The notes: generated by a model from the sequence alone, not told the origin. A stretch of DNA of 37,809 bases from Hyalangium sp. (GCF_045802625.1 NZ_JBJMQP010000096.1:1-37809), one strand, 5' to 3'. Counted from the first letter of the stretch, positions 2,404-27,277 are shown. Numbers and translations: made by a program.

Positions 2404-2450
2404 CGGCCACCCCGTTGGCTCCAGACCAACTCAACTAGAAGGAACGAACG

Positions 2451-2837
2451 ATGGCTCGTATCGCCGGTGTCGATCTCCCGCCTGCCAAGCGCGCGGTGAT
2501 CTCGCTTCAGTACATCTACGGGATCGGTAACAAGACCGCCCATGACATCTGCGCCCACGCGGGGATCGAACTCGCCACGCGGACCAAGGACCTGACCGAT
2601 GAGCAGGCCCGCAAGATCCGCGAGTACATCGAGGCGAACCTCAAGGTCGAAGGCGATCTGCGGCGCGAAGTGACGATGAACATCAAGCGCCTGATGGACC
2701 TGGGCTGCTACCGGGGCCTGCGTCACCGCAAGGGCCTGCCCGTCCGCGGCCAGCGCACCCACACCAACGCCCGCACCCGCAAGGGCCCCAAGCGCGGCAT
2801 TGTGCGCGCCAAGCCGGCTGCTCCGGCGGGCCGCTAA
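2451..2837 (+). CDS. rpsM: 30S ribosomal protein S13
   Basis: [10 protein letters not shown]...[10 protein letters not shown]...[24 protein letters not shown] is canonical S13. Confidence 0.95.
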
Positions 2838-2910
2838 CCCGTTCCCCCACCTGCGCCGGTCCTTCACTGTGCCGGCGTCGATTACCTACTTCTGAGGAGC
2901 ACCGACTCTC

Positions 2911-3357
2911 ATGGCTGAAGAAGTCAACACCCCCGCCGCCGCTCCGGCCGCCCCCGAGGCTGGTGGTGAGACCGCCGCGGCGAAGAAGGCCAAGCGCAAG
3001 GGCAAGAAGAACATCCTCAACGGCGTGGTCCACATCCAGTCCACGTTCAACAACACCATCATCACGATCACGGACGTGTCCGGGAACGTGATCTCCTGGT
3101 CCTCCGCTGGCGCCCGTGGCTTCAAGGGCAGCCGCAAGTCGACGCCGTTCGCCGCGCAGGTTGCCGCCGGTGACGCCGCCGCCAAGGCCATGGAGCACGG
3201 GCTGAAGAACGTGACGGTGCTGGTGAAGGGCCCCGGCGCTGGCCGTGAGTCCGCGCTGCGCGCCCTGGCCGCCGCGGGCCTGAAGATCAACCTCATCCGC
3301 GACGTGACGCCCATCCCGCACAACGGCTGCCGTCAGCCCAAGCGCCGCCGCGTCTAA
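2911..3357 (+). CDS. rpsK: 30S ribosomal protein S11 (Ala/Lys-rich N-terminal extension)
   Basis: ...[29 protein letters not shown]...[12 protein letters not shown]...[18 protein letters not shown] is canonical S11. Confidence 0.95.
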
Positions 3358-3416
3358 TCCTCCCCCGGGCCGCTCCGCAAGGCGCGGCCCCAGACCACCT
3401 CTCGAAGGAGAAGTCC

Positions 3417-4043
3417 TTGGCTCGTTACACCGCCAGCGCCTGCCGCATCTGCCGGCGCGAGAACCTGAAGATGTACCTGAAGGGCGACCGCTGCTACACG
3501 GACAAGTGTGCCATCGAGCGCCGCCCCTATCCCCCCGGTCAGCACGGCCAGGGCCGCGTGAAGTTCTCCGGCTACGGCGTGCAGCTGCGCGAGAAGCAGA
3601 AGGTCAAGCGCATGTACGGCCTGCTCGAGAGCCAGTTCCGCGGGTACTACCACCGCGCGTCCGCGGCCAAGGGCAAGACGGGTGAGAACCTGCTGCAGCA
3701 GCTCGAGCTCCGCCTGGACAACGTGGTGTTCCGCATGGGCTTCGCGGACACGCGCGCCGAGGCTCGCCAGCTGGTGCGCCATGGCCACTTCACGGTGAAC
3801 GGCAAGCGGGTGAACATCCCGTCGTTCGGCGTGAAGCCGGGCAGCTCCGTCGAGGTGGCGGAGAAGAGCCGCAAGGTGCTCCGCATCTCCGAGGCGCTGG
3901 AGACGGTGGACCGCCGCGGCGTGCCGCAGTGGATCGACCTGGACAAGAAGGGCTTCAAGGGCACGGTGAAGACCGCCCCGAACCGTGAAGACCTGACCAT
4001 GCCGATCCAGGAGCAGCTCATCGTCGAGCTCTACTCCAAGTAA
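3417..4043 (+). CDS. rpsD: 30S ribosomal protein S4 (with N-terminal Cys4 zinc finger)
   Basis: [36 protein letters not shown]... followed by an S4 RNA-binding domain; 208 aa. Confidence 0.95.
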
Positions 4044-4080
4044 GGCGTGAGGCCCCTCGTGGGCCTGATGGCTTGCTTCA

Positions 4081-4121
4081 GGCGCCCTGGCGGCCACCGC
4101 CGGGGCGTCGTGCTTCTTTCT
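4081..4121 (+). terminator. intrinsic-terminator-like hairpin plus U-tract in the rpsD-rpoA spacer
   Basis: Stem ggcgccctggcgg/ccgccggggcgtc is about 13 bp with 2 G-U pairs. It is followed by gtgcttctttctgg. It is flanked by smaller hairpins aggccc-ctcgt-gggcct (4050-4066) and ggccgg-catgt-ccggcc (4122-4138). Confidence 0.35.
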
Positions 4122-4226
4122 GGCCGGCATGTCCGGCCCTGGCTATTTGTCGTACCCCCGCGTGTCCATCCTCCTGCCACCCTGGCGGGTAAGTCGGTGG
4201 TGGCGCACGCTCCGAGGAGCAACACC

Positions 4227-5273
4227 ATGGCTGATACGTTCATCGCGAAGAACTGGCGCGACCTCATCAAGCCTCGCCGGCTGGAAGTCGATCAGGACTC
4301 GCTCACCACCACTTACGGCAAGTTCGTCGCCGAGCCGCTCGAGCGCGGCTTTGGCACCACGCTGGGCAACTCGCTGCGCCGCGTGCTGCTGTCCTCGCTG
4401 CAGGGCTCGGCCATCACCTCGGTGAAGATCGAGGGCGTGGACCACGAGTTCACCACCATCCCCGAGGTGGCCGAGGACGTCACGGACATCGTGCTCAACC
4501 TGAAGGAAGTCCTCCTTCGGATGCACACGAACGAGACGAAGACCCTGCGCATCGAGGCGGAGGGCCCCAAGGAGATCAAGGCCGGTGACATCATCGCCGA
4601 CCAGGATGTGGAGATCCTCAACCCCGGCCACCACATCTGCACGGTGTCCGAGGGCGGCAAGGTGCGCATGGAGCTGTCGTGCCGCCGCGGCCGTGGCTAC
4701 GTGGCCGCCACCGTCAACAAGGTGGCTGGCGCGCCCATCGGCACCATCCCCATCGACTCGCTGTTCTCGCCCATCCGCAAGGTGAACTACCAGGTCACCA
4801 ACGCCCGCGTCGGCCAGGTCACTGACTTCGACAAGCTGGCGCTGGAGGTCTGGACGGACGGCTCCGTGACTCCGCAGGACGCGGTGGCGTACGCGGCGAA
4901 GATCATCAAGGAGCAGCTCACGGTCTTCGTGAACTTCGACGAGACCGAGGAGCCCGTGGTCGCGGAGGCCCCGAAGGAGGAGGCCAAGCTCAACGAGAAC
5001 CTCTTCCGCTCGGTGGATGAGCTGGAGCTCTCGGTGCGCTCGGCCAACTGCCTGCAGCAGGCCAACATCAAGACCATCGGCGATCTGGTGCAGCGCACCG
5101 AGGCCGAGATGCTCAAGACGAAGAACTTCGGCCGCAAGTCTCTGAAGGAGATCAAGGAGATCCTCGCGGAGATGGGCCTGTCGCTCGGCATGAAGCTGGA
5201 GAACTGGCCCCCGAAGCAGGCTCCGGTGGCGGCTCCGGCCGCTCCCGCCGCCAGCGCGGCGCCCAAGGCCTAG
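4227..5273 (+). CDS. rpoA: DNA-directed RNA polymerase alpha subunit
   Basis: Translation from ATG 4227 ([21 protein letters not shown]...) gives 348 aa with alpha NTD, alpha CTD and an Ala/Pro tail. SD GAGGAG lies 7 nt upstream. The track ORF starts 180 nt upstream in the spacer. Confidence 0.93.
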
Positions 5274-5447
5274 GCCTTCCCGTAGTGCCTCGATCCGCGC
5301 CGTGACACGGCCTCACGCGGCGCGGGCAGAGGGGGCCCCCAAAAAGGGCCCATTGGCAATGGCGAGCCTCGTGTCAGGCCCGCTCTTCCCACCCGGTACC
5401 TGATACGGCCGGAGTGGTGGAGCCCGAAAGGCTCCGGAGTCGCGGAC

Positions 5448-5855
5448 ATGCGTCACAAGATTGGACAGAGGAAGCTCCACCGCACCACGAGCCACCGGCT
5501 CGCGATGCTCAACAACATGGTCACCTCGCTGCTGGAGCACGAGGCCATCCGCACCACCGTCCCCAAGGCCAAGGAGGCCCGGAAGATGGCGGAGCGGATC
5601 ATCACCCTCGGCAAGCGCGGCGGTCTGGCCAATGTCCGGCTCGCGGCTCGCATCGTGAAGGACAAGAACGTCCTCCAGAAGGTGTTCAGCCAGTACAAGG
5701 ACCGCTACGCCACCCGCAACGGTGGCTACACCCGGATCATCAAGCTCGGCTTCCGCCGTGGTGACGCGGCCGAGATGGCCCTGCTGGAGCTGGTGGATCG
5801 CCCGGCGAAGGCCGCGGCCGCCGAGGGTGGCGAGGCCGAGGAGAAGAGCGAGTAG
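5448..5855 (+). CDS. rplQ: 50S ribosomal protein L17
   Basis: [37 protein letters not shown]... is canonical L17. A hairpin cggagcc-cgaaa-ggctccg lies about 25 nt upstream. Confidence 0.95.
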
Positions 5856-5935: not shown

Positions 5936-6604
5936 CTACTCCAGCGGCTGGCCGTCCTTCACCAACTCCGCGTTGCCGTGCTTGGTGCGCATCTCCGCGC
6001 TGGTGAAGCGCTGATCGGCGGGCATGGACCCTTTGGAGCTCAGCAGGCTCTTGGGCGTGAGGGTGAAGATGCTGCCGGCGTCGATCTTCTCCACCGTCGC
6101 GCGGTACGAGCCATTCACCACGAAGACGACGTCCTCCCAGGGATCGTTGGTGGTGTTGGTGACGGTCAGGCTGGGCGCGGCCTTGGGGCGATCCGCGTTG
6201 GGCAGCACCGTGACGCGCGCGCCGAGATCCGCTGTCTTCACGCCCCGGCCCGGGCACGCGATGATGATGCTCACCAGGGAGATGAAGATCCAACCGCCGA
6301 CGATCCCCGCCTTGGCCTTGACGAACCAGTCCGAGCCGCGGAAGTCCTGGGCCAGCTCCTTGACGATGGAGAGGGCGTTGAGGAACTGGTTGGAGGCCTC
6401 GGAGGCGAGGCGCTTGCTCACCTTGCCGTCGGGCTTCTTCTCGACCGGGGCCGCGCGCGCGGCGCTGATCGCCCGCATGCCGCCTGGGTTCGTCACCGTG
6501 CGGGGGATGCCGGGGCTGGAGACCGTGCGCGGAGGAGCCCCGGAGGACTCGGGGCCCTCCGTCGGCGGAGCGCTCTGTTCAGGCACCTTGCGACCTTCGC
6601 TCAT
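5936..6604 (-). CDS. hypothetical single-pass membrane protein with a Pro-rich N-terminus
   Basis: ATG start at 6604 and high GC3. One TM helix, IVGGWIFISLVSIIIAC. Lies 36 nt downstream of the TPR gene on the same strand. Confidence 0.6.
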   Translation of the reverse strand: MSEGRKVPEQSAPPTEGPESSGAPPRTVSSPGIPRTVTNPGGMRAISAARAAPVEKKPDGKVSKRLASEASNQFLNALSIVKELAQDFRGSDWFVKAKAGIVGGWIFISLVSIIIACPGRGVKTADLGARVTVLPNADRPKAAPSLTVTNTTNDPWEDVVFVVNGSYRATVEKIDAGSIFTLTPKSLLSSKGSMPADQRFTSAEMRTKHGNAELVKDGQPLE

Positions 6605-6640
6605 CGGACACCGAGTGTAGAGGCGAGGAGCGCCCGGTGG

Positions 6641-8029
6641 CTACTCCTGAGCCTTGATCTGTTGCAGCGCCCGCGAGGCCAGGGCGTTGTCCGGCTGCTC
6701 CTCCAGGACCTTGAGGAGCCACTTCTCCGCCTCCTGGCGCGACGCCTTGCGCTCCTCCGGCTTGCGGGCCTTCAGCGTCTCCTCGGTGAAGAGCAGCCCC
6801 AGGCGCAGGGCGAACTCCATGTTCTCCGGGTCTTTTTCGACCACACGCCGCAGCTCGCGCTCGGCCGCCGGGAAGTCACCCTCCAACTGGTACACCATGG
6901 CCAGCTTGCCCCGAGGCGGGGCCGCCTCCGGCTGCAGCGAGGTGAGGACGCGGAAGGCCTCGCGGGCGGCGGGGATGTCCCGTCGATCCAGGCTCAGGTC
7001 TCCGAGCCGGGACCAGGCGTCGTCCAGCAGCGGGTTGAAGGCCACGGCCTTGGTGAAGGCCTCGCGGGCCGCGTCCGCGCGCTGGCGCGAGAGGTACAGC
7101 TCGCCCAGATAGAACTGGTTCTTGCCGTCCCGGGGCGCCAGCTCGATGGCCTGCTTGAACTCGTCCACGGCCCGGCCCGCGTCATCCAGCCGCTCGTAGG
7201 CCAGCCCCAGCAGCGCGTGCACCACGGCCAGGTCCGGGTAGTCGTGGAGGATCTCCTCGAAGGCGAGGATGGCCTGCTGCGGAACATCCATCTCCTGGAG
7301 GAAGCGCATGCCCTCCTCGAGCTTGCCCTGGGCCGCCTTCGGGAAGCCGGCGAACGGGTCGGCGATCTGGTTCATCAGCGCCCGGGCCGTCGTGACTTCA
7401 GCGGGAGTGGGAGAGGCTCGGACGACGGCGCTCAGCGCGGCCACGGCGCCCGCGCTGTCCCCGGTGCGGTGCAGCGCCTTGGCCAGCGGGAGCCGGATGG
7501 CGGCGCGATCCGGAGTCAGCTCGGCGGCGCGGCGCAGCGGGCCCAGCGCGGCGGCGTACTGCTCGGACTCCAGGTAGGCGATGCCGAGGCGGTAGTGGAA
7601 CTCGGCCTCGCTGGGGGCCATGGCGATGGCGCGCTCGAAGGCGGCCACCGCGGGCGCTCCGGCGTCCGAGGACCGGGAGAAGTAGGCCAGCCCGAGCATG
7701 TAGTGGTTCACCGCTCGCTCGGACTGGGCGTTGCGGCGCTGGAGCTCCGCGATCCACGCATCCGTGTGGCCCGCCTTCACCTGGGCCTCGGTGAGCGCCC
7801 GGGCGATGTCGAGATCCTCCGGGCTCTTCGCGTGCAGCTCCTGCAGCAACGGCAGGGCTTTGGCGGGCTGGTTCTCTTCCAGATAGACGTGGGCCTGCTC
7901 GCGAGGGCTGAGCACTCGCTCCATCGAGGAGCCATGGCTGCAGCCGGTGAGGAGGCTCCAGCCGAGCACGGCGGCCAGGGCTTGCCGGCGGAGCAGGGAG
8001 ACGCGGAGGGTCGGGAGCTTCACGTTCAA
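6641..8029 (-). CDS. TPR-repeat lipoprotein
   Basis: Signal peptide with lipobox LLTGC, then about 10 TPR repeats. The start is TTG 8029 or GTG 8023. plsC ends 2 nt upstream. Confidence 0.75.
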   Translation of the reverse strand: MNVKLPTLRVSLLRRQALAAVLGWSLLTGCSHGSSMERVLSPREQAHVYLEENQPAKALPLLQELHAKSPEDLDIARALTEAQVKAGHTDAWIAELQRRNAQSERAVNHYMLGLAYFSRSSDAGAPAVAAFERAIAMAPSEAEFHYRLGIAYLESEQYAAALGPLRRAAELTPDRAAIRLPLAKALHRTGDSAGAVAALSAVVRASPTPAEVTTARALMNQIADPFAGFPKAAQGKLEEGMRFLQEMDVPQQAILAFEEILHDYPDLAVVHALLGLAYERLDDAGRAVDEFKQAIELAPRDGKNQFYLGELYLSRQRADAAREAFTKAVAFNPLLDDAWSRLGDLSLDRRDIPAAREAFRVLTSLQPEAAPPRGKLAMVYQLEGDFPAAERELRRVVEKDPENMEFALRLGLLFTEETLKARKPEERKASRQEAEKWLLKVLEEQPDNALASRALQQIKAQE

Positions 8030-10820: not shown

Positions 10821-12521
10821 ATGCCCGCCCTGTTGCTGCTCACCGGCCCTTCCGCCGGCCGCCGGTTCGAGGTGGTCTCGGAGGTGACGATCGGCCGCAG
10901 CCCCTCGTGCGAGCTCCAGATCGACGACGACAAGGTGTCGCGGCGGCACGCGCGGATCTTCCTGCGCGAGGGCCAGGTGTGGCTGAGCGATCTGGGCTCG
11001 ATCAACGGCACGCTCGTCAACGGCCGGCGGGTGAAGGGCGAGGCTCGTCTGCTGCCGGGCGATCGCTTCCAGGTGGGGGAGACCACCGCCACCTACGAGC
11101 CGCTCCCCGAGCCAGTCCTCGCGGAGACGCAGCCGCTGGACGCCAGCCATGTGCCCATCGCGGAGGTGCTGCCCCACGTGGGGCCCGAGGCGGGGCTGTT
11201 CTCGGCGGCGGTGGCGCTGCTGGGGGCTACCAGTGAGGCCATGGTGCTGCGGCGGCTGGTGGTAGAGGCCCTTCACGCGCTCAACGCGGACCGGGCCGCG
11301 GCGCTGCTCGGCGGGCCGGAGGAGCTGCTCACCGCGGCGGTGTCCGGCGCGGCCTCCGTGGAGGTTCCCCGCTTCATGTCGAGCCTGGCGCTGGAGATGA
11401 AGGAGGTGGCCTCCACGGGCACCGCGCTGTGCGCTCCGCTGGTGGCCTCGGGGGGAATGCCCTTTGGGGTGCTGTATGCGGAGTGCAACGAGCCGCGGTT
11501 CTCCGCGCTGGAGGTTCAGCAGGTGGCGGCGCTCGGGCGTATGGGCGGGGAGGCGTATACGGCCCTGCGCTCGCGTGCGCGGGAGGAGCAGGCCCAGGTG
11601 GAGGTGGTGGGCACCTCCCGGCCGTTCCGCCGCATGGTGGAGCAGGCCCGGCGCGCGGCGGCCAGCACGGCGCCCGTGGTCATCTCCGGAGAGCCCGGGA
11701 CGGGGAAGAGCCTGCTGGCCCGGTACATCCACCTGCACTCCCCGCGAGGGCTCGGGCCGCTGGTGGCGGTGGACTGCCGGCAGCCGGCCGTGGAGGAGCA
11801 GCTCTTCGGTGGAGCCAGTGCTCCTGGGCTGCCGCCGCGCTCTTCGGCGCTCCTGCGCGCGGATGGGGGCACGTTGCTGCTCCAGCATGTGGAGGGGCTC
11901 TCGGGCGCTGTCGTCGAGCGGCTCACGCGGCTGCTCACGAGCAAGGTGGCTCCGGCGAGGCAGGGCGGTGAGGAGCCCGTGGATCTGCGCCTCATCGCAA
12001 CGGCGAGCGCGCCCGCTCAGCTCCTGGCGGCCCAGGGGGCGATGGACATGACCCTGGCGATGGCGCTGTCCGGGCTGGAGATCGAAGCGCCTCCACTGCG
12101 CGAGCGCCGGGCCGACGTGCTCGCGCTCTTCGAGCACTTCTCCCAGCGGAGCGCGGGAGAGACCCGAAAGCCTGCGCCTGTGCTGAGCCCGGGGGCCCGG
12201 CGCCTGCTGGCGGACTACACCTGGCCGCAGAACGTCCGCGAGCTGAAGCTGGTGAGCGAGCGGCTCGCGCGCGTGTACGCGGGCGGCGAGGTGTACGCGC
12301 TGCGGCTGCCCCCGGAGATCCAGGAGGGCGGGGTGGTGTCTGAGCCGAGCAGCTTGCCGCGGCTTGTGGAGCGCCTGGAGCGGGAGGCGATCATCGAGGC
12401 ACTCCAGGCCGCGGGCGGGAGGAAGAGCCGCGCGGCGGAGCGGCTGGGCATCAGCCGCCCCACGCTGGACAAGAAGATCGAGGAGTACGCCATCCGTGTG
12501 GAGCGCTCGCGGCGGAGCTGA
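10821..12521 (+). CDS. FHA-domain sigma54-interaction-domain transcriptional regulator with degenerate Walker B and GAFTGA motifs
   Basis: N-terminal FHA domain (GRSPSCELQIDDDKVSRRHARI...GSINGT), then an AAA+ bEBP core. Walker A is GEPGTGKS. GAFTGA is replaced by GASAPG, and Walker B reads TLLLQHVEGL where DE is expected. The R-finger PPLRER and WPQNVREL blocks are conserved. C-terminal Fis-type HTH. Confidence 0.85.
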   Translation: MPALLLLTGPSAGRRFEVVSEVTIGRSPSCELQIDDDKVSRRHARIFLREGQVWLSDLGSINGTLVNGRRVKGEARLLPGDRFQVGETTATYEPLPEPVLAETQPLDASHVPIAEVLPHVGPEAGLFSAAVALLGATSEAMVLRRLVVEALHALNADRAAALLGGPEELLTAAVSGAASVEVPRFMSSLALEMKEVASTGTALCAPLVASGGMPFGVLYAECNEPRFSALEVQQVAALGRMGGEAYTALRSRAREEQAQVEVVGTSRPFRRMVEQARRAAASTAPVVISGEPGTGKSLLARYIHLHSPRGLGPLVAVDCRQPAVEEQLFGGASAPGLPPRSSALLRADGGTLLLQHVEGLSGAVVERLTRLLTSKVAPARQGGEEPVDLRLIATASAPAQLLAAQGAMDMTLAMALSGLEIEAPPLRERRADVLALFEHFSQRSAGETRKPAPVLSPGARRLLADYTWPQNVRELKLVSERLARVYAGGEVYALRLPPEIQEGGVVSEPSSLPRLVERLEREAIIEALQAAGGRKSRAAERLGISRPTLDKKIEEYAIRVERSRRS

Positions 12522-12556
12522 AAGCCGCGGCTTCCACTCCCGCCACGGCCGGCTCC

Positions 12557-14218
12557 TCAGAGGGACTTGAGGAACTCGATCAGCTCCCACTTCTGGTCTT
12601 CACTCAACTCCCGAGTGCCGTACGCATGGCCCGCGTTCGAGTTGCCTGGGAGGGTGGTGTCGAACCGGAAGCCTCCGTCCCAGGGCTGAGTGTCGAAGCC
12701 CACGTTCTTGGGATCGAAGTCCCGGCTACCGACGTAGAACTGCTTGACCCGCTGCTCCGGAGGGACCAGCACCTGCCAGAGGTTCGGTACCGAGCCGTTG
12801 TGGAGATAGGGCGCCGTGGCCCAGATCCCATTGAGCGGCCGAGTCTTGTACACATTCAAGTCCTTGCCGTGCGATCTGGGCACCTTGAGGAACTCGCCGA
12901 TCGCCGCCGTCGTCGACTCAATGGGCTGAGAGAGGATGGAGCCCACCACGGCGTGCAGAAGGATGTCCCAGCCGCCCGCCGTGGGGCCGAACGGCTCCCC
13001 GACGAGGACGTATTCCCTGGCGCCCTCGAGCGGGCCCGTCTTCGCCACGCGGGTCGAGAAGTTGGTGGCCATCTTTGGATCCGTCCCCACCTCCGCGAGT
13101 GGCGTCAGGACCGCGGAGACTCGCCGGGCCGGGCTGGTCCGGTCGATGAACGCGTGGCACCTCACGCAATACTTCTCATAGTGTGCCTTGCCCCTGGCGG
13201 CCTTGAGGGGATCAATGGCTGGCAGGACTTCCGTGGGCCACTGGGGGGACCAGAGCTTCTCCAGCGACTTCTCCAGCTTGCCAATGTTCTCGAAGTCGAT
13301 GGAGTTCTCATATCCAGGCATGAGCCCGGACGGGGAGAGCGTGACCGACGCGAAGACTCCCAGCAGCTCGCCGGTGTTGCGGAGCAGCGGCCCCGGCGGA
13401 GTGTTCGAGGCCGAGCCGTTCCACTGCACCACGTCGTGCTGGGGAGTATCCCAGAGGAACGGGTAGGAGACCGGGGCGTCCGCGTTGGTCCGGTTCTCGG
13501 GAATGCCAAGGTCGTGAGCCAACACCATGTTCAGGATGTCCCCGAAGGCATCCAGCCGGGCGTAGCCGTACGCCACCGGAGAGGCATTGAGGTGCCGGCG
13601 AGCTTCCAACTGCGCGGTCGTCTCGAACAGGGCCTGGCGCAGCTCATTGGCACTGTCCAGGTCATAGGCGTCGCGGAGGATGGCCCGCGCGAAGCGCTCG
13701 AACTTCGCGGCATCCTTGCTGGTGGCGGCCAGCGCGGCGGCCAGCTCGTCGAAGAAGGTCGTGAAGTCCGCGAGCGTGGGGGCCCCGTCAATGCGGAGCC
13801 CCACCCCGTTGAAGTTGACCTGGCCGGTATGGCACGCGGCGCAGGTCAGCCCGATCCAGCTCTGGCCATGCTTGTCGACGTCCTTCACGAAGCCCACGGG
13901 CAGACCGTCCGGGTTCAACGGGCTCGGGTCGGCCGTGAGGTACCGGAAGCGCTCGAAGTTCGCGGTAGAGCGGAACAGGTGGGTGTTCGAGGCCTGCTCC
14001 AGGTTCAGGAACCACTCGTAGGGGAGGATCTGGGAGCCCTGGGTGGTGAACCAGAACCACTCTCGCTCCGCCTTGTTCCAGCCCTGGCTCAGGTTGACCA
14101 CTTTGATAGGGCCCCCCCGGGGCGCCTCATCCTTGGAGACGGAGTGGGAGGTGGCACAGCTCTCGAGAACCAGCATGAGGCACGCCATGGCGGCGGCCCT
14201 GGGCAAACATGTCTTCAT
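12557..14218 (-). CDS. secreted di-heme c-type cytochrome (DUF1111 / peroxidase-like family)
   Basis: Two CxxCH motifs (CAACHTG, CVRCHA) and a Sec signal peptide. Start ATG 14218 is preferred, with SD GGAAAGGA 6 nt upstream; TTG 14224 is the alternative. Confidence 0.75.
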   Translation of the reverse strand: MKTCLPRAAAMACLMLVLESCATSHSVSKDEAPRGGPIKVVNLSQGWNKAEREWFWFTTQGSQILPYEWFLNLEQASNTHLFRSTANFERFRYLTADPSPLNPDGLPVGFVKDVDKHGQSWIGLTCAACHTGQVNFNGVGLRIDGAPTLADFTTFFDELAAALAATSKDAAKFERFARAILRDAYDLDSANELRQALFETTAQLEARRHLNASPVAYGYARLDAFGDILNMVLAHDLGIPENRTNADAPVSYPFLWDTPQHDVVQWNGSASNTPPGPLLRNTGELLGVFASVTLSPSGLMPGYENSIDFENIGKLEKSLEKLWSPQWPTEVLPAIDPLKAARGKAHYEKYCVRCHAFIDRTSPARRVSAVLTPLAEVGTDPKMATNFSTRVAKTGPLEGAREYVLVGEPFGPTAGGWDILLHAVVGSILSQPIESTTAAIGEFLKVPRSHGKDLNVYKTRPLNGIWATAPYLHNGSVPNLWQVLVPPEQRVKQFYVGSRDFDPKNVGFDTQPWDGGFRFDTTLPGNSNAGHAYGTRELSEDQKWELIEFLKSL

Positions 14219-14320
14219 GAACAATCCTTTCCAGACTCCGAAGATCAGACATCCCCCCTCACGGGAGGTCTCGGGGGCTCTTCAAGGACTGCTCACGCCC
14301 TCTGTCTGTGAATCCAAGGC

Positions 14321-16273
14321 TCAGCCGACCCGGTACGAGAGATCGTGGAGGCGCAGCTCGTTCCACAACTGCTGGCACTTCTCCAGGGTCCAGCTCGCCG
14401 GGAGCGTGCGCTGCGCGTTCGAGCCACTGAGCAGCTCGCCGTGGAGGCCATGGTAGGCCGTGGTGTCGATGAAATGGACGGTGTAGCCGAGAGGCGTCAG
14501 CAACGCTTGCATGTAGCACTCCAGCACGTCCACGGCGTTGCTCGGGATCCAGACCCGATTGACTTCGGTGGGGCCGGTGTGCAGCTCGCCATGCTCGGAG
14601 AACTTCTGCGCGTTGTTCTCATGTTTGTGCAGCTCTTCCGGAGAGCAGCCGTGCTCCTGGGCGAGCTGGTTCACCTGGGTGCCTTTCCGGGCCCAGGTCC
14701 AGTAACCCACCCACTCCTTTGTCTCGATCTTCATCTGTTGGATGCCGGAGTCGCCCAGCTCTTGCAGCTGCTTCATGAGCTCGCTCTTCAGCTTCTCCTC
14801 CACCAAGGCCTCCTTCTTGCCCCAGGCTCCGTCCGCCTGATCGCCGGGCCAGGGCGGCTGGAGGCCCAGCTCCTCCAGGAGCTTCGACGCCCGGTGACGC
14901 TCCACGCGGGGCCCGAAGGGCTTCGGCACCAGGGCGTGGCCGTTGATGACTTGCAGGTTGACCAGGCCGGCCGTATGGGCGGTGCCCTGTCCGGGAACAG
15001 AGGTGTCGAACGCCACGGGGATCGGGATGAAGCTCTCGTCATCCAGCGCGAGCCCGGCCTTCAGCCGCTCCCGGAGATGAGCGAACTTCTCGCGCTGCAG
15101 CGTGGTGTTTGTCTCGCGGAACGTCCCCACCGAGAGCGAGGGGTAGCGAGCCGTGAGCTGATTCTGCTCCTTTGGCTCGAGGAGCTCATAGAGCCGGATC
15201 ATCAGTCCGGGATCCGCGATGAGCACTCGGGAGGAGCCCTCTTCGGGCTGGAGGAAGGCCACCAGCTCACTGACGTGCCCGACGGCAAGCCAGGAGGTGT
15301 CGATCGGGAGCAGGGGCTGGAGCCGCTGCGACGTCAACCACTGGCGCAGCCGCGGTTCCATGCGGCCCTGCTCGCTGTCCCCGACGACCAGCTTGCCGAG
15401 CGGCGCGGGCGGGTGCTCGGTGACGGCGGGACCGGACTCGTCTGCCGCGAGCGGCGCGGTCTTGCTCGGCACGGGGGGGCTGACGAGTACGTTGCCCCCA
15501 TAGCTCTGGTGGGACTCTCTGGCTCCCTTCTCGGCGAAGAAGACGTCGTTGCAGACGGGCAGCAGGCCCGGCAGCGTGGACAGGACAAGCTCGCTGAGCG
15601 AGCCCTTGGGCAGCCTCGGGAAGTGCAGGGCCACGGCCGTCTGGGTATGCTTGTCGAAGTCGCAGCAATAGCCTGCTTGGAACTGATCCTGGACCCGCGC
15701 GTTGTCTTTGAAGCCATCCTTGAGCGTGTTGAAGAGATACAGTCCATGAGCGCCGTTGCCGTGCACGAGCGCGCTGGTGCCGTGCGCGAGCGCCTGAGAC
15801 GCATCAGCGGGGGACTGCAGGGATTCAGGCCAGATTTGATGGCAGGCCAGCGAGAGATCGTAGACGAACGGGTGATTCTCAGCAGGATCGTAGTACGCGA
15901 AGAGCCTCTCGCAGTGGGCCCAGCCGGGGAGGGCGAGCCAGGGGCCCAGGAGCGTGCTGCCCCACGCGGTGGGCAGGAAGCCGGCGAAGGCCTCTCCTTG
16001 GAGACTGCCCGGCTGGAGCTTCAGGGTGCCGCGCGTCGCGTCGCTCAACACGAGGTTGGCAGGAGTGAGATCCGTGGCGTGGATGGGCTCCTGGCCGCTG
16101 GTGAGCCTCTGCTCGATGACGGTGTGGTGCACCTTGAAGAGAAACTTCGGGTCCAGGCCGCAGGCGCTCTGGAGATGATCGGCCAGGGCCTCCCCCGTCA
16201 GCTCCGCGTCGGGGAGATGTACCTTGGTTTTGAACCAGCGCCCCTGACTGAAGAAATAGACATCCGTATCCAT
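14321..16273 (-). CDS. protein-arginine deiminase (PAD) family homolog, with catalytic Cys to Ser and Asp to Ser substitutions
   Basis: Blocks match PAD catalytic-domain signatures: RVQDQFQAGY (PAD4 D350 region), LAVGHVSELVAFLQP (VGHVDEF), HALVPKPFGP (HLGIPKPFGP), VHFIDTTAYHGLHGELLSGSNA (TFINDF.YH..HGEVHCGTNV). Start ATG 16273 with SD GAGGAG. The track's GTG 16369 would overlap the NmrA gene. Confidence 0.75.
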   Translation of the reverse strand: MDTDVYFFSQGRWFKTKVHLPDAELTGEALADHLQSACGLDPKFLFKVHHTVIEQRLTSGQEPIHATDLTPANLVLSDATRGTLKLQPGSLQGEAFAGFLPTAWGSTLLGPWLALPGWAHCERLFAYYDPAENHPFVYDLSLACHQIWPESLQSPADASQALAHGTSALVHGNGAHGLYLFNTLKDGFKDNARVQDQFQAGYCCDFDKHTQTAVALHFPRLPKGSLSELVLSTLPGLLPVCNDVFFAEKGARESHQSYGGNVLVSPPVPSKTAPLAADESGPAVTEHPPAPLGKLVVGDSEQGRMEPRLRQWLTSQRLQPLLPIDTSWLAVGHVSELVAFLQPEEGSSRVLIADPGLMIRLYELLEPKEQNQLTARYPSLSVGTFRETNTTLQREKFAHLRERLKAGLALDDESFIPIPVAFDTSVPGQGTAHTAGLVNLQVINGHALVPKPFGPRVERHRASKLLEELGLQPPWPGDQADGAWGKKEALVEEKLKSELMKQLQELGDSGIQQMKIETKEWVGYWTWARKGTQVNQLAQEHGCSPEELHKHENNAQKFSEHGELHTGPTEVNRVWIPSNAVDVLECYMQALLTPLGYTVHFIDTTAYHGLHGELLSGSNAQRTLPASWTLEKCQQLWNELRLHDLSYRVG

Positions 16274-16326
16274 GGGTCTCCTCGAGCTTGTCGGCCTGGA
16301 CGAAGGTGCGCACGCGCGTGCCAGGG

Positions 16327-17277
16327 TTACGCCGCCCCCAGCAGGCGTGCCTTGTTGCGCGCGAGCCACTCGGAGAACGTCTGCAGCCCCGGGTTCAGCT
16401 CGCGCGCGAAGGCAGGGTCGCGGACAGCGCAGTACTCCTTCTCGAAGTCGCGCATGAACTGGAACATGTTCGCCAGGTCCTTGGCGCCGGGGAAGTTGAA
16501 CGTCCGGTACACCTCCGGCGGCATGTAGCCGTAGATGACCTCCTGGCCGAGCGCCTGTCTCAGCGTCGCGGCGATCTGCTCACCCGTCAGGTGCTCGCCG
16601 GCCAGGCCCACCGTCTTGCCGATCAGCTCGCGGCCCCGCTTGAAGATGCCGTAGGCACAGTCGCCGATGTCCTCGCTGGCGATGCCCGCGAGCTTCTTGT
16701 CCGCCATGGGCAGGACGAAGACGAGCTTGCCGTCGGGACCCTTCTTCGAGCCCATCCCGAAGCGCAGCAGGTTGTCCCAGGAGAATGTCGTGAGGAGGAA
16801 CGTGGTCGGCACGCCCAGCTCCGTGAAGTGGCGGTCGCTCTCGCCCTTCACGTCGAACTGGGGGACCTTGTACTTCCCCTTCAACGTCGGCATCCGCTCA
16901 TCCTCGAGCGGCATCAGGCGGCGCGTGTCCTCCAGCGTCGACCAGATGACGTGCTGCAGGCCCGCATCCTTGGCGGCCTGAGCCATTGTCCTGGCCTGGG
17001 CGAGCTCCTTCTCGGGAGCGGAGTTCTCCCAGAAGTTCGTGAGGCAGAAGGCCCCGTAGGCGCCCGCGAACGCCGCGCGCATGCTGCCCAGATCGTTCAC
17101 ATCGGCCGTGACGACCTCCGCGCCGAGCTTCGCCAGCTTGTGTGCCAGCTCGGAGTTTGACTTGCGCGTGAGGGCGCGCACCGCGAACTCGCCGCTGGGG
17201 TCCGCGAGGATGGCACGCGCAAGGCCTCCCCCCTGATCTCCCGTTGCTCCCACCACCGCGATGATCTTCTTGTTCAT
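16327..17277 (-). CDS. NmrA-family NAD(P)-binding protein
   Basis: Rossmann motif VVGATGDQGG with NmrA-like architecture; 316 aa. ATG start with SD GGAGA. Starts 21 nt downstream of the SET gene. Confidence 0.85.
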   Translation of the reverse strand: MNKKIIAVVGATGDQGGGLARAILADPSGEFAVRALTRKSNSELAHKLAKLGAEVVTADVNDLGSMRAAFAGAYGAFCLTNFWENSAPEKELAQARTMAQAAKDAGLQHVIWSTLEDTRRLMPLEDERMPTLKGKYKVPQFDVKGESDRHFTELGVPTTFLLTTFSWDNLLRFGMGSKKGPDGKLVFVLPMADKKLAGIASEDIGDCAYGIFKRGRELIGKTVGLAGEHLTGEQIAATLRQALGQEVIYGYMPPEVYRTFNFPGAKDLANMFQFMRDFEKEYCAVRDPAFARELNPGLQTFSEWLARNKARLLGAA

Positions 17278-17298
17278 GATTGTCTCCGCATCTCGTTG

Positions 17299-18609
17299 TC
17301 AGCCAACTCGTTGATCGCTCTGCGCGCTCGTGTCTTCGGGGCCAGGAGAGGCGCTGCGCAGCGTGGGAAGGAAAGTCCGCGCCAGGCCGGCGAACGCGTG
17401 GAGCAGCCGCTTCTCTCCGCGCCGCAGCAGGAGGCAGGTGCGCGCGTTGCGCGAGAGCTCCGCATCCCGGAGGAGCTGCTCGTCCTCCTCCAGCGTCGTC
17501 TCGAAGCCCGCGAGCCGCGCCTCGCAGAGCTCACCGAGCGTACGGAGGACCCGCTCCTCGTTGTCCACGCTCAAGGGCTCAATGACGCCCAGGCCCCCGC
17601 TGGCGTTGGCAGCGGAGGTGATGCTGGCGAGTTCCTCCTCGTTCGCATGGGCCACACGGAGGAAGGAGAACATCGCCGCGGTCGTTGCGTGATCGTAATA
17701 GAGGGGCACCTCGAAGCGGCGCAGCGCGGTGGGGCTGGACAGCCCCAGGAGCTCCCGCTTGACGAGCGCCAAGGGATCACTTTCGGGAATGCCCAGATGG
17801 AGCAACAGCTCATCCTGAGGGTTGTCCTCGGGCACGAAGCCGTAGTTGAGCAGGAAGCGGAAGTTGGACTTGACTCCGTAGCTGATGTGGAATTCCTCGC
17901 CTGCGGACACGGCCTCTCGCGCCACCAACACGAAGGCCGTCTCGTCCGCGGAGGGTCCCCACAGGCCATGGGGAGACTGCCGGTGGTTGAGCATGTCCGC
18001 CAGCGGCACGAAGCACCGGACGAGCTTTCCGCCCAGCTTCATGCCGAAGGTGCGGCTGACGAGCACGAGCTGCGCCCAGAGGAACGCGTCAGGAGTGAAG
18101 CGCGAGAATCCAGGAACACGCTCGCACAGGAAGGCATACTCGCCCAGCAGCAGCGCCCTCCATCTCGCGACCTCCCCCAGCATGGCGGAGCCCTTCAAGA
18201 AAGAGAGGTCGTGCTCGTCGAAGAAGAGGGGCAGGTGAGGGAAGGCGGCCGGCAAGGGATCGAGATAAGGCTTCCAGCAGGAGTTCTCTCGCGAGCGTTC
18301 CTGGAGGAGGAAGGCGGCCAGGCACGACTCCTCGCTCGCGGAAGGGGCATGAGCCGCGATACGGCGGCCGATGTCGGAGGCGCTGGCGACGTCGAACGTC
18401 AACAGGCACCCCCGTGGCACTCGGAGCACCTCCTCGCCCGGAGCAATATCGGCCCGGGCAAAGACGCCGCGCTCGCCGCCCTCCAAGTAGTCGATTCGCA
18501 GTTTGGGGAAGGAGGCTCCTGCCTGTTCAAGCCATTCCAGCGAGAAGGGCTCGTGCGCCGGATGACTGTCCTTTGGGGTACTTGGGTCTGCCTGAAAGTC
18601 GGTGCTCAT
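17299..18609 (-). CDS. SET-domain protein lysine methyltransferase (Rubisco-LSMT/SETD3-like)
   Basis: SET signatures VPLADMLNH and GEEFHISYG, post-SET LLNYGFVPEDNP, and a helical C-terminal substrate-binding-like domain. ATG 18609 is preferred over TTG 18675. Confidence 0.8.
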   Translation of the reverse strand: MSTDFQADPSTPKDSHPAHEPFSLEWLEQAGASFPKLRIDYLEGGERGVFARADIAPGEEVLRVPRGCLLTFDVASASDIGRRIAAHAPSASEESCLAAFLLQERSRENSCWKPYLDPLPAAFPHLPLFFDEHDLSFLKGSAMLGEVARWRALLLGEYAFLCERVPGFSRFTPDAFLWAQLVLVSRTFGMKLGGKLVRCFVPLADMLNHRQSPHGLWGPSADETAFVLVAREAVSAGEEFHISYGVKSNFRFLLNYGFVPEDNPQDELLLHLGIPESDPLALVKRELLGLSSPTALRRFEVPLYYDHATTAAMFSFLRVAHANEEELASITSAANASGGLGVIEPLSVDNEERVLRTLGELCEARLAGFETTLEEDEQLLRDAELSRNARTCLLLRRGEKRLLHAFAGLARTFLPTLRSASPGPEDTSAQSDQRVG

Positions 18610-18811
18610 TGGCTCCGCCGTGCGGCGTGGGTGCGCCAGGAAAGACGTGGCAGCGGAGGTGGTTGTGATTTCCAAGGCTCAGCGAGGCAGGTCCGTGGTG
18701 AAGCTCCAGAGCAGCGAGCCAGGAGGAGTGCGCTCACCCGCCTGTCAGCCAGAGCCCTCGTCCGCTCTCCTGGAGCTCACATCCCTGAAGGATGAGAGCC
18801 TTCTGCATTCC

Positions 18812-19381
18812 ATGCGAGTGCGCACCTGTGCCTGGAGGCACTGCCGGCGTGTCTTCTTCCTCTGCGCGCGCTGCAACCGGGGCAACCTGTACTGCTCGCG
18901 GAGCTGCGCGCAGAGGGCCCGGCGGGTGAGCCTGAGGGCCGCGGGGCAGCGCTACCAGCGCAGCCGCAGGGGCCGCTTCAAGCACGCGGCCCGTCAGGCC
19001 AGCTACCGGCAGCGGCGGAGGGCGCTGCAGAAAGTGACGCATCCCTCTACGCAGGAGCCGCCGACTCTCGGCAATGTGGTCTCTCCGACGGAGAACACGA
19101 AGCACACCCTCATACCGCTCTCCGCCGGGCGAGAACATGCAACGAAGCCTCAGGAGTTCGGGAGTGAACAGGCGGGGGCCGCTGCTCGAGCCACCCGGCA
19201 GGGCGCCTCGGCGGGCCTGTCCGGCCGCCTCATGGGTGCGTCTGGTGGCGAGGAAGGAGCGCGGGCCACCACCTCCCTGGAAAGCCCCCGGCCCGAGTGG
19301 CAGTGCATTCGCTGTCAGCGCTCGCTGAGCGCCCTGCGCCAGACCCTCCTGGCGGTGGCGCTCCCCTCAGACAGGGCCTAG
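18812..19381 (+). CDS. hypothetical Cys- and Arg-rich zinc-ribbon-like basic protein
   Basis: MRVRTCAWRHCRRVFFLCARCNRGNLYCSRSCAQRARR... carries C-x4-C, C-x2-C and C-x3-C, followed by an R/Q-rich tail and a C-terminal CIRC. GC3 is very high in the first 70 codons. Divergent from the SET operon. Confidence 0.45.
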   Translation: MRVRTCAWRHCRRVFFLCARCNRGNLYCSRSCAQRARRVSLRAAGQRYQRSRRGRFKHAARQASYRQRRRALQKVTHPSTQEPPTLGNVVSPTENTKHTLIPLSAGREHATKPQEFGSEQAGAAARATRQGASAGLSGRLMGASGGEEGARATTSLESPRPEWQCIRCQRSLSALRQTLLAVALPSDRA

Positions 19382-19479
19382 CGGCAGTCCATCACATCGG
19401 GTGACGCCGCCGCGTTGCCGCTCCAGTTCGAGACGAAAAGCCTCTCACCCGTGCGGGCGCTCCGCGGGTGGCGAGGGCT

Positions 19480-19560
19480 GATAGGGATTGAAATGTCTTC
19501 AGACGTTTGAGTGTGCCAGGTTGTGAATATTTCGTTTGAGTTTAAAGGCTTTTCACAAAC
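19480..19560 (+). promoter_or_regulatory. AT-rich putative promoter region of the ECF sigma gene, with two direct CGTTTGAGT repeats
   Basis: Local GC is far below the 70% background. Copies of CGTTTGAGT lie at 19504-19512 and 19533-19541, 29 bp apart. Confidence 0.3.
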
Positions 19561-19605
19561 AAAGGGCTGGTCCGTCTCCAGGGGGCACTTTCCGGCACAG
19601 GACCC

Positions 19606-20145
19606 GTGAAATCTCCCTCGAGCCCCTCTTCTTTTTGGCAGGTCTGGTTGCAGCACAAAGACCATTTGCATCAACAGAGCCTTCGTCTGATGGGAGGGAG
19701 TGAGCCCGATGCGGACGACGCGCTGAACACCGCCATGCTTCGCGCCTTGCAGCGGTTCTCTTCCTCGAGTGGAGAGATCCACAACGAGAAGGCCTGGCTG
19801 AGCCGGATCCTCTACAACGTCTGCATGGACCTTCACCGCGAGCGCCGGCGCCGGGTCGACCCGGAGGAGCTGCTCGAGGAGGCGGAGATCTCGTGGGGCG
19901 CGCCTCTGGAGGACTCACCGGATGAGGTGCTGCTCCAGCGCGAGCGGGCCGAGGAGATCCACGGCTGCATCGAGGCGCTGCCCCTCAACCTGCGCAAGCC
20001 CTTCACGATGCGCTTCCTGCAGGACATGTCCTATGCGGACATTGCCCTGCACCTGCAGCTGACCAACTGCAACGTGAGGAAGCGCATCCAGCTTGCCTAC
20101 GGCATCCTCCGCGTCACGCTGGCGGAGGTGCTCCTCGCGCGCTGA
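19606..20145 (+). CDS. ECF-type RNA polymerase sigma-70 factor
   Basis: Region 2 (DALNTAMLRALQRF, ILYNVCMDLHRERRR) and region 4 HTH (MSYADIALHLQLTNCNVRKRIQLAYGILR) are present. GTG start. GC is lower than in neighbouring genes. Confidence 0.85.
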   Translation: MKSPSSPSSFWQVWLQHKDHLHQQSLRLMGGSEPDADDALNTAMLRALQRFSSSSGEIHNEKAWLSRILYNVCMDLHRERRRRVDPEELLEEAEISWGAPLEDSPDEVLLQRERAEEIHGCIEALPLNLRKPFTMRFLQDMSYADIALHLQLTNCNVRKRIQLAYGILRVTLAEVLLAR

Positions 20146-25579: not shown

Positions 25580-27277
25580 TCAGCTCTGCTTCGCGCCCGC
25601 GCGGGCCAACGCCTCGCGGCCTCCTGCCAGATAGAGCTGCTCCCATTGCAGGAGTTGCGTGGGAGTCACCCCCAGCTTTTGAGCGGACTCCAGCCGGCGC
25701 GCGGCCAGCTCCAGCACCGCACGCTCGAGCTCCTCGTGGCCCTGGGGCTTGCTCGGAGGAGTAGGGGCCGGTGGCGGCGCCGTCAGGGAGAGCAGCCCCA
25801 AGGTGGACGGGAGGGTGCTGGCCGGCGCCGGCTGTGCCAGCGGCAGCCGCACCGCGGGATCCCCAAGGAGGATGTAGCCGCCCAGATCCTGGCGGAGCAT
25901 CCACAGGTGGGCCCGCTGCAGCGGATCCACTGGTGAGGGCCGCCCGGCGCCCCGGGCCTCCTCTTCCTGATCATACAGCGTGGTCAGCTCGAGGTTGGCC
26001 TGGTGGCCCCCCCGCAGCAGCCACCCCAGGCCCACTCCGGCGCGGCGTCCCCGCGCGAACTGTTGCAGCGGCTCCAGGAAGCGGGAGGTCTTGCCGCGGC
26101 GGCTGTCGCGATCCTGGAAGCCATACGTCCAGGCCAGGTCCACGTGGCCGAAGACCGCCAGCGGCCCGTTCGGGTTGGCCAGCGCGGCCTGGGGCAGCGC
26201 GGCGACGAAGGGCCGCTCTCCGGGCTGCGGGAGCGAGGAGGTGATGGAGTCGAGCCTCCCGCTGAACTGCCCCCCTGCCTGGAGCTGCCGCAGCCAATGC
26301 TGGAACGCGCTCCGCGACGGAGTGCCCGCGCCGAAGCAGGCGAAGAGGAACCAGATGCCGCCCGGCAGGAAGGGCCGGCTGGCCAGGGAGGCGCCGTCCA
26401 GGTGTAGTCCTTCCCCCAGGTTCATCGCGCCCTGGAGCGCGAGCTTCTCGTCCGTGCTGCGCCAGCCGGCGCGCGGGCTGCCGAGCCCGTGGCTCATGCT
26501 GAAGAGGATCCCAGGCCGTGGCTGTGATGCCTGCTCGAGCAGCTCGGTCACACCGCCCTTTCCGGGCCCCCCGAGCTCTAGCAGCTCCCGCATGGGGAAT
26601 CTGCCCAGCTCACGGGCCTGCTGGGCGGCGACGAGGCCTGGCGCCACCAGCGCCTGGTAGCCCGTGGAGGTCGCCGCGGTGCCGTCATGGACCGTGAAGA
26701 AGAGCGCGCGTGCCTGCTCCTCGGTGGAGGGCTCGCGCTCCCAGCGGAGCACCTTCGCCACGTAGGACTCGTAGTCCTGCTCGCGCCGGAAGGCCAGCCG
26801 CCCGACGAAAGCACTGCTGGCCGCGCACTGCTGCAGCTCGAAGGGCACCTGGTCGAAGTCCCCGAGGAACAACAGGTAGCGCGGCCGATCCGCCACCGGC
26901 ACCGACTCGTCATCGAGCACGGTGCGCACCCAGCGGGAGAAGTGCTCCAGGCTCCGGGCCTCCGCGGCCAGCCCTGGCTTCACCCGGTAGATGCGGACAG
27001 GGTGACCGCCCTGATCCTCCTGCCGCCGCCGGCGCAGGGGCTCGATGAGGGCGAGCAGCCGGTCGCCTTCGGGCCCCTCGGGAGCGACGAGGCCCCAGCG
27101 CTGCGCGGGCAGTGAGTTGGGATCCTCGCCATCATCCCAGAGGTGGCTCTCCTCCCGGGCCTCCTGGGACTCGCTGGGAGGGGCCTGCGCGGCGGCTGCC
27201 GCTGGCACCCCTTGGGGGGTTACGGGTTCGTGGGAATCAGCGTGGACAAGTAACAGCTCCAGGTTCTCCGTGCTCAA
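25580..27277 (-). CDS. gingipain-like (peptidase C25, clan CD) cysteine peptidase with no signal peptide and a C-terminal HTH
   Basis: C25 blocks YLLFLGDFDQVPF, catalytic His ILFSMSHGLGS, catalytic Cys IWFLFACFGAGTP, and GGYILLGDPAVRLPL. After a Pro-rich linker the C-terminus reads LELAARRLESAQKLGVTPTQLLQWEQLYLAGGREALA, which resembles the IS3 OrfA HTH. TTG start at 27277. Confidence 0.7.
   Translation of the reverse strand: MSTENLELLLVHADSHEPVTPQGVPAAAAAQAPPSESQEAREESHLWDDGEDPNSLPAQRWGLVAPEGPEGDRLLALIEPLRRRRQEDQGGHPVRIYRVKPGLAAEARSLEHFSRWVRTVLDDESVPVADRPRYLLFLGDFDQVPFELQQCAASSAFVGRLAFRREQDYESYVAKVLRWEREPSTEEQARALFFTVHDGTAATSTGYQALVAPGLVAAQQARELGRFPMRELLELGGPGKGGVTELLEQASQPRPGILFSMSHGLGSPRAGWRSTDEKLALQGAMNLGEGLHLDGASLASRPFLPGGIWFLFACFGAGTPSRSAFQHWLRQLQAGGQFSGRLDSITSSLPQPGERPFVAALPQAALANPNGPLAVFGHVDLAWTYGFQDRDSRRGKTSRFLEPLQQFARGRRAGVGLGWLLRGGHQANLELTTLYDQEEEARGAGRPSPVDPLQRAHLWMLRQDLGGYILLGDPAVRLPLAQPAPASTLPSTLGLLSLTAPPPAPTPPSKPQGHEELERAVLELAARRLESAQKLGVTPTQLLQWEQLYLAGGREALARAGAKQS

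Follow-up and report, generated by a model that had tools for sequence, protein, structure and literature searches.

In the homologs of the mammalian protein-arginine deiminases (PADs or PADIs) the catalytic and substrate-binding residues have been reported to be fully conserved in all cases (Cummings et al. 2021, PMC8826395), and the cyanobacterial version, cyanoPADI, has been shown to be active and Ca-dependent (PMC8826395). Mammalian PADI6 is without the catalytic Cys and is considered enzymatically dead, being essential via a structural role (PMC9174705); its PDB label reads 'Inactive protein-arginine deiminase type-6'. In the SET family, SETD3 is an actin histidine methyltransferase, and Rubisco LSMT and SETD6 are protein lysine methyltransferases. 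Homologs of both families are encoded close together in a stretch of 37,809 nucleotides from Hyalangium sp. (GCF_045802625.1, NZ_JBJMQP010000096.1:1-37809; hereafter the window), which is myxobacterial DNA of about 67% GC from a metagenome-assembled genome (MAG), with genes read from the sequence. Here four successive minus-strand genes, separated by gaps of 21, 53 and 102 nt, code for a SET-domain methyltransferase, an NmrA-like protein, a PAD-like protein and a di-haem cytochrome c. The SET, PAD-like and cytochrome proteins each match proteins of a Hyalangium sp. MAG with 100% identity. The first-pass annotation of this DNA had viewed the first three genes as an operon that may constitute a SET + PAD protein-modification module. 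Such a module is not supported by our analysis, as the PAD-like gene is unlinked in relatives and its product has lost the nucleophilic Cys as well as an Asp that is essential. Instead, we consider it probable that the locus is a composite, in which a conserved SET-NmrA cassette is followed by a lineage-specific, disabled PAD homolog and an unrelated cytochrome, with no dedicated SET+PAD module. The principal features, in order of reading on the minus strand, are:

17299-18609, minus strand: SET methyltransferase gene, 436 aa
17278-17298, minus strand: SET-NmrA spacer, 21 nt (counterparts in ortholog loci 4-39 nt)
16327-17277, minus strand: NmrA-like gene, 316 aa
16274-16326, minus strand: spacer between the NmrA and PAD-like genes, 53 nt
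14321-16273, minus strand: PAD-like gene, 650 aa

The family assignments and the eukaryote-like character proposed earlier for these proteins were both confirmed, with every Pfam match lying above the gathering threshold and the best solved-structure matches being human SETD3, NMRAL1/HSCARG and PAD3/PAD4. The PAD-like protein matches PAD_C (PF03068) with 92.8 bits (gathering 25, E = 3e-26), and phmmer relates it to PAD3 and PAD4 with E-values of 1e-18 to 1e-15. Its AlphaFold2 model has a confident core (pTM 0.71), and the top 50 Foldseek matches of this model are all PAD1-4 (E ~1e-20 to 1e-17, probability 1.0), with PAD4, PAD3 and PAD2 at ~1e-20. As judged from the model, the protein clearly has the predicted fold of the PAD catalytic domain, i.e. 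the pentein fold. Neither PAD_N nor PAD_M, which accompany the catalytic domain in animal and late-cyanobacterial PADIs, was detected by Pfam; the first-pass annotation had named PAD_M as a check, and this domain is found in just one of 16 close relatives. The N-terminal ~108 residues are unique, a single soil-read fragment being the one homolog that could be detected, and have low model confidence apart from a short beta-hairpin and helix. Residues ~458-582 (~125 aa) constitute an insertion with respect to the mammalian PADs that shows an occupancy of ~0.6 in the top 60 bacterial relatives; residues 1-108 and 473-520 were singled out as segments. No signal peptide was found in the protein. 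In support of its start codon, a GAGGAG Shine-Dalgarno sequence precedes the ATG by 5 nt, and the orthologous soil-read fragment (P0154) begins at the same Met.

To assess its active site, columns were judged over the 150 best relatives, the counts below being those relatives aligned at each column. The diagnostic positions of the window protein are:

15695-15697, minus strand: Arg193
15269-15271, minus strand: Ser335 (AGT)
14429-14431, minus strand: Leu615
14426-14428, minus strand: Ser616 (AGT)

The motif GHVDE appears in the PAD-like protein as GHVSE (S335) and the motif HGEVHCGTN as HGELLSGSN (L615, S616). At GHVDE, 121 of 122 relatives carry Asp, and at HCGTN His and Cys are each found in 71 of 71; the combination Ser/Leu/Ser occurs in the window protein alone. 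The column of S616 is occupied by Cys in wild-type PAD3 and by Ala in the PAD3 C646A mutant, i.e. Ser616 stands where the catalytic nucleophile (PAD4 C645 / PAD3 C646) is expected. Of the two guanidinium-binding Asp residues and the catalytic His, numbered D350, D473 and H471 in PAD4, the first Asp and the His are kept as D196 and H333, and the second Asp is Ser335; R220 is also retained. Further, an aromatic residue of the pocket wall, Trp or Phe in 36 of 39 relatives, is Arg193. The deviations are concentrated: the protein keeps 46 of the 51 columns conserved at >=85% in the family, and four of its five deviations fall in the two catalytic motifs. The mean for relatives is 2.7 deviations; of the 39 with good coverage, a single one departs from the consensus at a catalytic position, and at no more than one such position. 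In the Ca-site region the window protein has QDQFQ as against QDEFE in many relatives, with Gln and other residues being common there in bacterial relatives. The substitutions require at least five nucleotide changes (the AGT of S335 is two from GAT or GAC), and hence are not sequencing noise.

Pentein catalysis runs via a Cys-thiouronium intermediate, with two Asp residues holding the guanidinium, and a thiolate is required across the superfamily for attack on the guanidinium carbon. Given this mechanism, and since the Cys and one guanidinium-binding Asp are gone, deimination by the PAD-like protein is predicted to be very unlikely. Most probably we are dealing with a pseudo-deiminase devoid of catalysis, for which the canonical thiouronium route to citrulline would be closed and which would be maintained as a pseudoenzyme with a binding or scaffold role. 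One could alternatively view it as still being an enzyme, albeit with altered chemistry, such as a Ser616/His333 nucleophile-base pair acting on a non-arginine substrate (a ureido, amidino or ester-type small molecule), along the lines of the small-molecule tailoring also floated by the first-pass annotation. We regard this as highly improbable. The retention of H333 and D196, the intact open reading frame (ORF), the confident fold and the fact that both replacements are Ser, a potential nucleophile, and not Ala or Gly, would be consistent with such a proposal; however, it runs against the thiolate requirement of penteins, and Cys-to-Ala PADs serve as inactive forms (PAD3 C646A entries). Moreover, the second guanidinium-binding Asp and the flanking His are also gone, there are no small-molecule biosynthetic genes nearby, and the configuration is seen in no other of the 150 best family members.

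Searches for further versions of the PAD-like protein underscored its rarity. Among 5.8 billion proteins, a word-indexed search recovered only the protein itself and one 28% match. This sole word-index homolog (P0002), which combines PAD_M with PAD, was considered as a clue to context and set aside, as its neighbors are WD40 proteins and hypotheticals that are unrelated to the genes of the window. An exhaustive HMMER search recovered 796 relatives, with the best non-self match at 40% identity. The closest sequence is the soil-read fragment P0154 (119 aa, from SRR5689334), which is 67% identical over residues 1-124 of the PAD-like protein; two metagenome scans yielded nothing further of this ortholog, and an exact look-up gave no contig for it. 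A genome scan with the family alignment identified 79 PAD-bearing loci in Acidobacteriota, Nitrospirota, Salinivenus, Nonomuraea, Myxococcota and others, and tblastn showed the window SET, NmrA and cytochrome to be absent within ±8 kb of the PAD gene in all 79.

An unusual paralog expansion is seen in one uncultured Salinivenus MAG (CAYOWD01), with at least eight PAD-family genes on separate contigs (loci L009, L012, L013, L015, L017, L018, L020 and L024).

The linkage of the genes in relatives was studied in four ortholog loci, namely those of Cystobacter fuscus (L002) and Corallococcus sp. EGB (L003) and two on metagenomic contigs (L089 and L090). In each of these the SET gene is directly followed by the NmrA gene, with gaps of 4-39 nt and with NmrA orthologs of 66-77% identity to that of the window. 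The close SET orthologs, from Cystobacter, Corallococcus and uncultured relatives, show 64-71% identity, and a further SET homolog, for which there is no contig on record, is found in Vitiosangium (P0014). The two-gene SET-NmrA cassette is a conserved unit common to myxobacteria of the Archangiaceae/Myxococcaceae type. The gene after NmrA differs in each locus: an Stv-domain protein in C. fuscus, hypotheticals in Corallococcus, hypotheticals and an MCP on L089, and a hydrolase, SnoaL and P450 on L090. No PAD-like or cytochrome sequence was detected by tblastn in any of the four. The synteny in relatives that was anticipated for the operon is therefore seen for SET-NmrA (four of four loci) and not for the PAD-like gene (none of four). 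As the gene after NmrA differs everywhere and is nowhere PAD-like, the PAD-like gene sits in a hypervariable slot at a synteny breakpoint. In the Hyalangium MAG this slot holds a highly divergent PAD-family gene whose product has kept the fold and most of the scaffold residues.

Such a setting raises the question of whether the gene might be a functionless, horizontally acquired relic that is pseudogenising but uninterrupted so far. Its uniqueness to the Hyalangium MAG at a synteny breakpoint and the loss of catalytic residues are in line with this, as is its Pfam score of 3e-26 versus 1e-67 for the best relative. Both active-site Ser residues use AGT, an uncommon A/T-ending codon at the GC3 (GC at third codon positions) of 0.86 of this gene and unusual at a genome GC3 near 0.9; AGT fits an origin in one step from TGT (Cys) and in two steps from GAT (Asp). 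Yet the ORF runs uninterrupted for 650 codons with genome-typical GC3 and low GC2, the 46 of 51 scaffold positions kept are within the range of active relatives, and the soil ortholog of the N-terminal domain implies persistence across a speciation event. On balance we think a relic unlikely, and return to the pseudo-deiminase in a composite locus as the preferred interpretation.

On the upstream side, a gene for an extracytoplasmic function (ECF) sigma factor is divergent from the SET gene in the window and likewise in all three ortholog loci with visible upstream sequence, which suggests that the SET-NmrA pair is possibly part of an ECF regulon. These genes are:

19606-20145 of the window, plus strand: ECF sigma factor gene with Pfam and NCBIfam matches, divergent from SET
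6377-7027 of the C. fuscus locus L002: ECF sigma ortholog
7304-7990 of the Corallococcus locus L003: ECF sigma ortholog
187-642 of the metagenomic contig L090: ECF sigma ortholog

In C. fuscus and Corallococcus the synteny with the window reaches further upstream, to include PhaC, PhaB, patatin and a C25-like gene.

Between the SET and ECF sigma genes, on the strand of the latter, there lies a Cys-rich and Arg-rich ORF of 189 aa (18812-19381, plus strand; MRVRTCAWRHCRRVFFLCARCNRGNLYCSRSC...). It is without a Pfam or NCBIfam match and shows 60% identity to a stretch without a called gene at the corresponding place in C. fuscus (7140-7640 of L002); it may encode a zinc-ribbon regulator or an anti-sigma-like partner.

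We then considered whether the PAD-like gene could be transcribed along with the cassette. The spacer between it and NmrA contains the palindrome GCACGCGCGTGC and no significant hairpin (fold z = +0.98 versus shuffles), in contrast to the strong hairpin after NmrA in Corallococcus (z = -2.3). A scan of 12300-19700 found no σ70 promoter-like sites, and a terminator scan of the same interval found one site, on the wrong strand, which is fewer than in shuffles. A candidate σ54 promoter in the spacer (TGGCAC...TGC, near the gene for an FHA-σ54 activator) was rejected as not above chance: a scan of the window gave 37 matches with <=2 mismatches versus 40 expected, the spacer element not being included, and a scan with alternative spacing gave 0 matches. 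As the spacer after NmrA is without a significant hairpin, read-through from NmrA into the PAD-like gene is plausible, and the latter may be expressed in this manner from the SET-NmrA transcript.

This possibility leads to another interpretation, wherein the three genes form a lineage-specific module for writing and reading. Here the PAD-like protein, produced alongside SET-NmrA, would act without catalysis as a reader or adaptor and bind an arginine, citrulline, methylated or anionic residue on the SET substrate. The shared strand, the 53-nt gap, the good Shine-Dalgarno sequence and the missing hairpin agree with it; so does the pattern of a kept scaffold with clustered pocket changes and a gained basic R193, which resembles remodelling over decay, and the ortholog fragment of 67% identity indicates that the gene persists in a second organism. 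Nonetheless, we judge it unlikely, since the linkage is conserved nowhere else; with the slot after NmrA holding unrelated genes in all genomes examined, it is simpler to regard the genes as neighbors through a chance insertion.

Several observations weigh against the composite interpretation that we favor. The synteny is drawn from four SET-NmrA loci, none of which is from a sister Hyalangium genome. The short same-strand gaps together with the lack of a hairpin after NmrA are compatible with a real operon in this genome, and a lineage-specific functional link is hence conceivable. The sole ortholog of the PAD-like protein spans the N-terminus only, leaving the Ser sites and the NmrA neighbor outside. 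With respect to inactivation, the AlphaFold2 confidence is low at residues 610-614, adjoining S616, and the retained D196, H333 and R220 in conjunction with the gained R193 could mean a new ligand or chemistry, not mere inactivation.

The first gene of the cassette codes for a protein with the SET domain (PF00856, 31.8 bits, cutoff 22.4) and the Rubis-subs-bind domain (PF09273, 84 bits), whose best PDB match, aligned over the full length, is SETD3 (6e-40), followed by LSMT (2e-32). It has the NH motif, with DMLNH aligned to DMCNH, and the conserved active-site Tyr, namely Y244 in HISYG (equivalent to SETD3 Y312). Its pocket residues are:

18046-18048, minus strand: F188, aligned with SETD3 N255
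17998-18000, minus strand: A204, aligned with SETD3 W273
minus strand: I242
17878-17880, minus strand: Y244

The SETD3-type histidine pocket, formed by Asn255 and Trp273, is thus replaced by Phe188 and Ala204. The single top PDB entry for the protein is 6V62, which is an engineered N255F/W273A mutant of SETD3; it ranks at the top because the window protein natively carries Phe and Ala at these positions. An F-A-x-Y pattern is seen in 109 of 120 SET homologs. SETD6 and LSMT, which methylate lysine, have Phe and Ala at the positions of SETD3 N255 and W273 (PMC6684798). Given this match in the pocket, the protein, an enzyme of the LSMT/SETD6/SETD3 class, is predicted to be a lysine, and not a SETD3-type histidine, methyltransferase. 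It is cytoplasmic and would most likely methylate a lysine on a bacterial protein.

SET paralogs at a greater distance (41-54% identity) have a GNAT acetyltransferase, and not NmrA, as neighbor or fusion partner. Such SET/LSMT-like paralogs lie beside GNAT genes in Archangium lansingense (L087) and Minicystis rosea (L088; with a 4-nt overlap in Minicystis), and a protein of 709 aa (P0064) combines SET, Rubis-subs-bind and Acetyltransf_1, indicating that the methyltransferase-acetyltransferase association recurs.

The second protein of the cassette matches NmrA (PF05368) with 181.6 bits (3e-53) and aligns over its full length with human NMRAL1/HSCARG (PDB 2wm3/2exx, 3e-49). It has an N-terminal GATGDQGG dinucleotide-binding motif. 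By extension, this HSCARG-like protein would bind NAD(P)(H) and might couple to or modulate the activity of the SET enzyme. Within the library of papers searched, no description of a bacterial SET-NmrA or SET-PAD pairing was found. Taking the two cassette proteins and the PAD-like protein together, one could go so far as to propose the first prokaryotic pseudo-PAD, with a pocket remodelled by the replacement of Cys and Asp with Ser, of His with Leu and of Trp/Phe with Arg so as to bind a ligand or residue without catalysis, in a lineage-specific writer-reader or writer-adaptor cassette with a lysine methyltransferase and an NAD(P)H-binding partner under ECF-sigma control; we hold this combined proposal to be decidedly unlikely.

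The gene downstream of the PAD-like gene was also correctly placed by the first-pass annotation, as were the three minus-strand genes with their gaps of 21 and 53 nt. The relevant features are:

14219-14320, minus strand: spacer between the PAD-like and cytochrome genes, 102 nt, with a moderate CCTCCC/GGGGGG hairpin (z = -1.5)
12557-14218, minus strand: di-haem cytochrome c gene, 553 aa, starting 102 nt past the PAD-like stop (about 100 nt in the earlier description)

The cytochrome matches the NCBIfam model for di-haem cytochrome c peroxidase (NF040606) with 630 bits versus a cutoff of 150, and its C-terminal module matches RoxA-like_Cyt-c (PF21419, 66.8 bits in Pfam). Its two CxxCH haem motifs are CAACH at residue 126 and CVRCH at residue 351, and it carries a lipoprotein-like signal peptide. 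More than 7900 homologs were found, and its closest relatives (67-69% identity) are encoded beside PLD-like, amidase, kinase or Cas genes. As a partner for the PAD-like protein it was rejected: its closest relatives are not beside PAD, SET or NmrA genes, and a signal peptide is present in the cytochrome but not in the PAD-like protein. As a rubber oxygenase it was likewise rejected, with 57-67 bits versus the RoxA, RoxB and RoxC equivalog cutoffs of 900-1000. It is an unrelated periplasmic di-haem peroxidase-family lipoprotein gene, evolutionarily independent of the genes upstream. GC3 by frame backs the called frames of the window over many overlapping spurious ORFs. The GC and GC3 of all four genes are typical for the window, and this composition carries no signal for or against recent horizontal transfer.

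The rest of the window offers several other observations. A gene for an enhancer-binding protein of the architecture FHA-GAF-σ54-activator-HTH_8 (10821-12521, plus strand) is convergent with the cytochrome gene; their stop codons are only ~35 nt apart, and a stable hairpin is located there (z = -1.8). The left end has a canonical adk-map-(infA/rpmJ region)-rpsM-rpsK-rpsD-rpoA-rplQ block (343-5855, plus strand), and this ribosomal protein cluster ends ~8 kb away from the SET/NmrA/PAD-like locus. A gene at 25580-27277 (minus strand) codes for a protein that matches Peptidase_C25 weakly and has an HTH_28 domain at its C-terminus, and lies beside patatin-PhaB-PhaC also in C. fuscus and Corallococcus. 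Further along, a gene at 31118-35857 (minus strand) codes for a protein of ~1580 aa with an nSTAND1 NTPase and ~14 or more WD40 repeats, a STAND-type architecture of the signalling or defence-like kind; after it comes a GH19 chitinase/lysozyme-like gene (30407-31006).

In comparison with known systems, the window SET protein shares with Rubisco LSMT, SETD6 and SETD3 the architecture of a SET domain combined with the helical Rubisco-LSMT substrate-binding domain, and with LSMT and SETD6 the Phe/Ala pocket. SETD3 is nearest in overall sequence, yet the window protein is without the Asn255/Trp273 histidine pocket, and hence should not be named an actin-histidine methyltransferase. It further differs from the eukaryotic members in being bacterial and paired with NmrA, a pairing for which no eukaryotic equivalent has been described. 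The NmrA protein shares with human NMRAL1/HSCARG, an NADPH sensor, the full-length similarity and a GxxGxxG-type motif, and a sensor role for the bacterial version would be by analogy; other NmrA-like PDB matches are enzymes, such as the KstA11-type monooxygenase (5f5l) and CtdP. With the NF040606/RoxA-like family the cytochrome shares the two CxxCH motifs and the RoxA-like module, and no conserved link to PAD-like or SET genes is seen. The conserved myxobacterial pairing of a predicted lysine-type SET enzyme with an HSCARG-like NmrA protein beside an ECF sigma factor offers a modest opening, amenable to testing, for the study of lysine methylation of proteins in bacteria. In contrast, as an operon for methylation and citrullination is unsupported, bacterial citrullination should not be inferred by annotation from the presence of this PAD-like gene.

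The PAD-like protein has in common with the bacterial, fungal and cyanobacterial PADI homologs the PAD_C family and the pentein fold, and like the non-cyanobacterial type it is without PAD_N; the bacterial relatives are sporadic across many phyla, including Myxococcota. It is only ~20% identical to the mammalian PADs. At three positions of the catalytic motifs it breaks the rule of conserved residues described for the PADI homologs (PMC8826395), and, if confirmed, would provide a case from nature of a bacterial PADI homolog that has not retained its catalytic residues. Its closest parallel is mammalian PADI6, in which the PAD fold is present, the catalytic Cys is gone, the Ca-site residues are altered and the protein is presumed non-enzymatic. 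Unlike PADI6, the window protein is an independent version that is without PAD_N and PAD_M, has the ~125-aa insertion of its subfamily and ~108 unique residues at the N-terminus, and in which the equivalents of PAD4 D473 and H644 are lost as well and Arg193 is gained. By analogy, it looks like an independent bacterial counterpart of PADI6, and this parallel, if confirmed, would be useful for asking what role the PAD fold plays without deimination.

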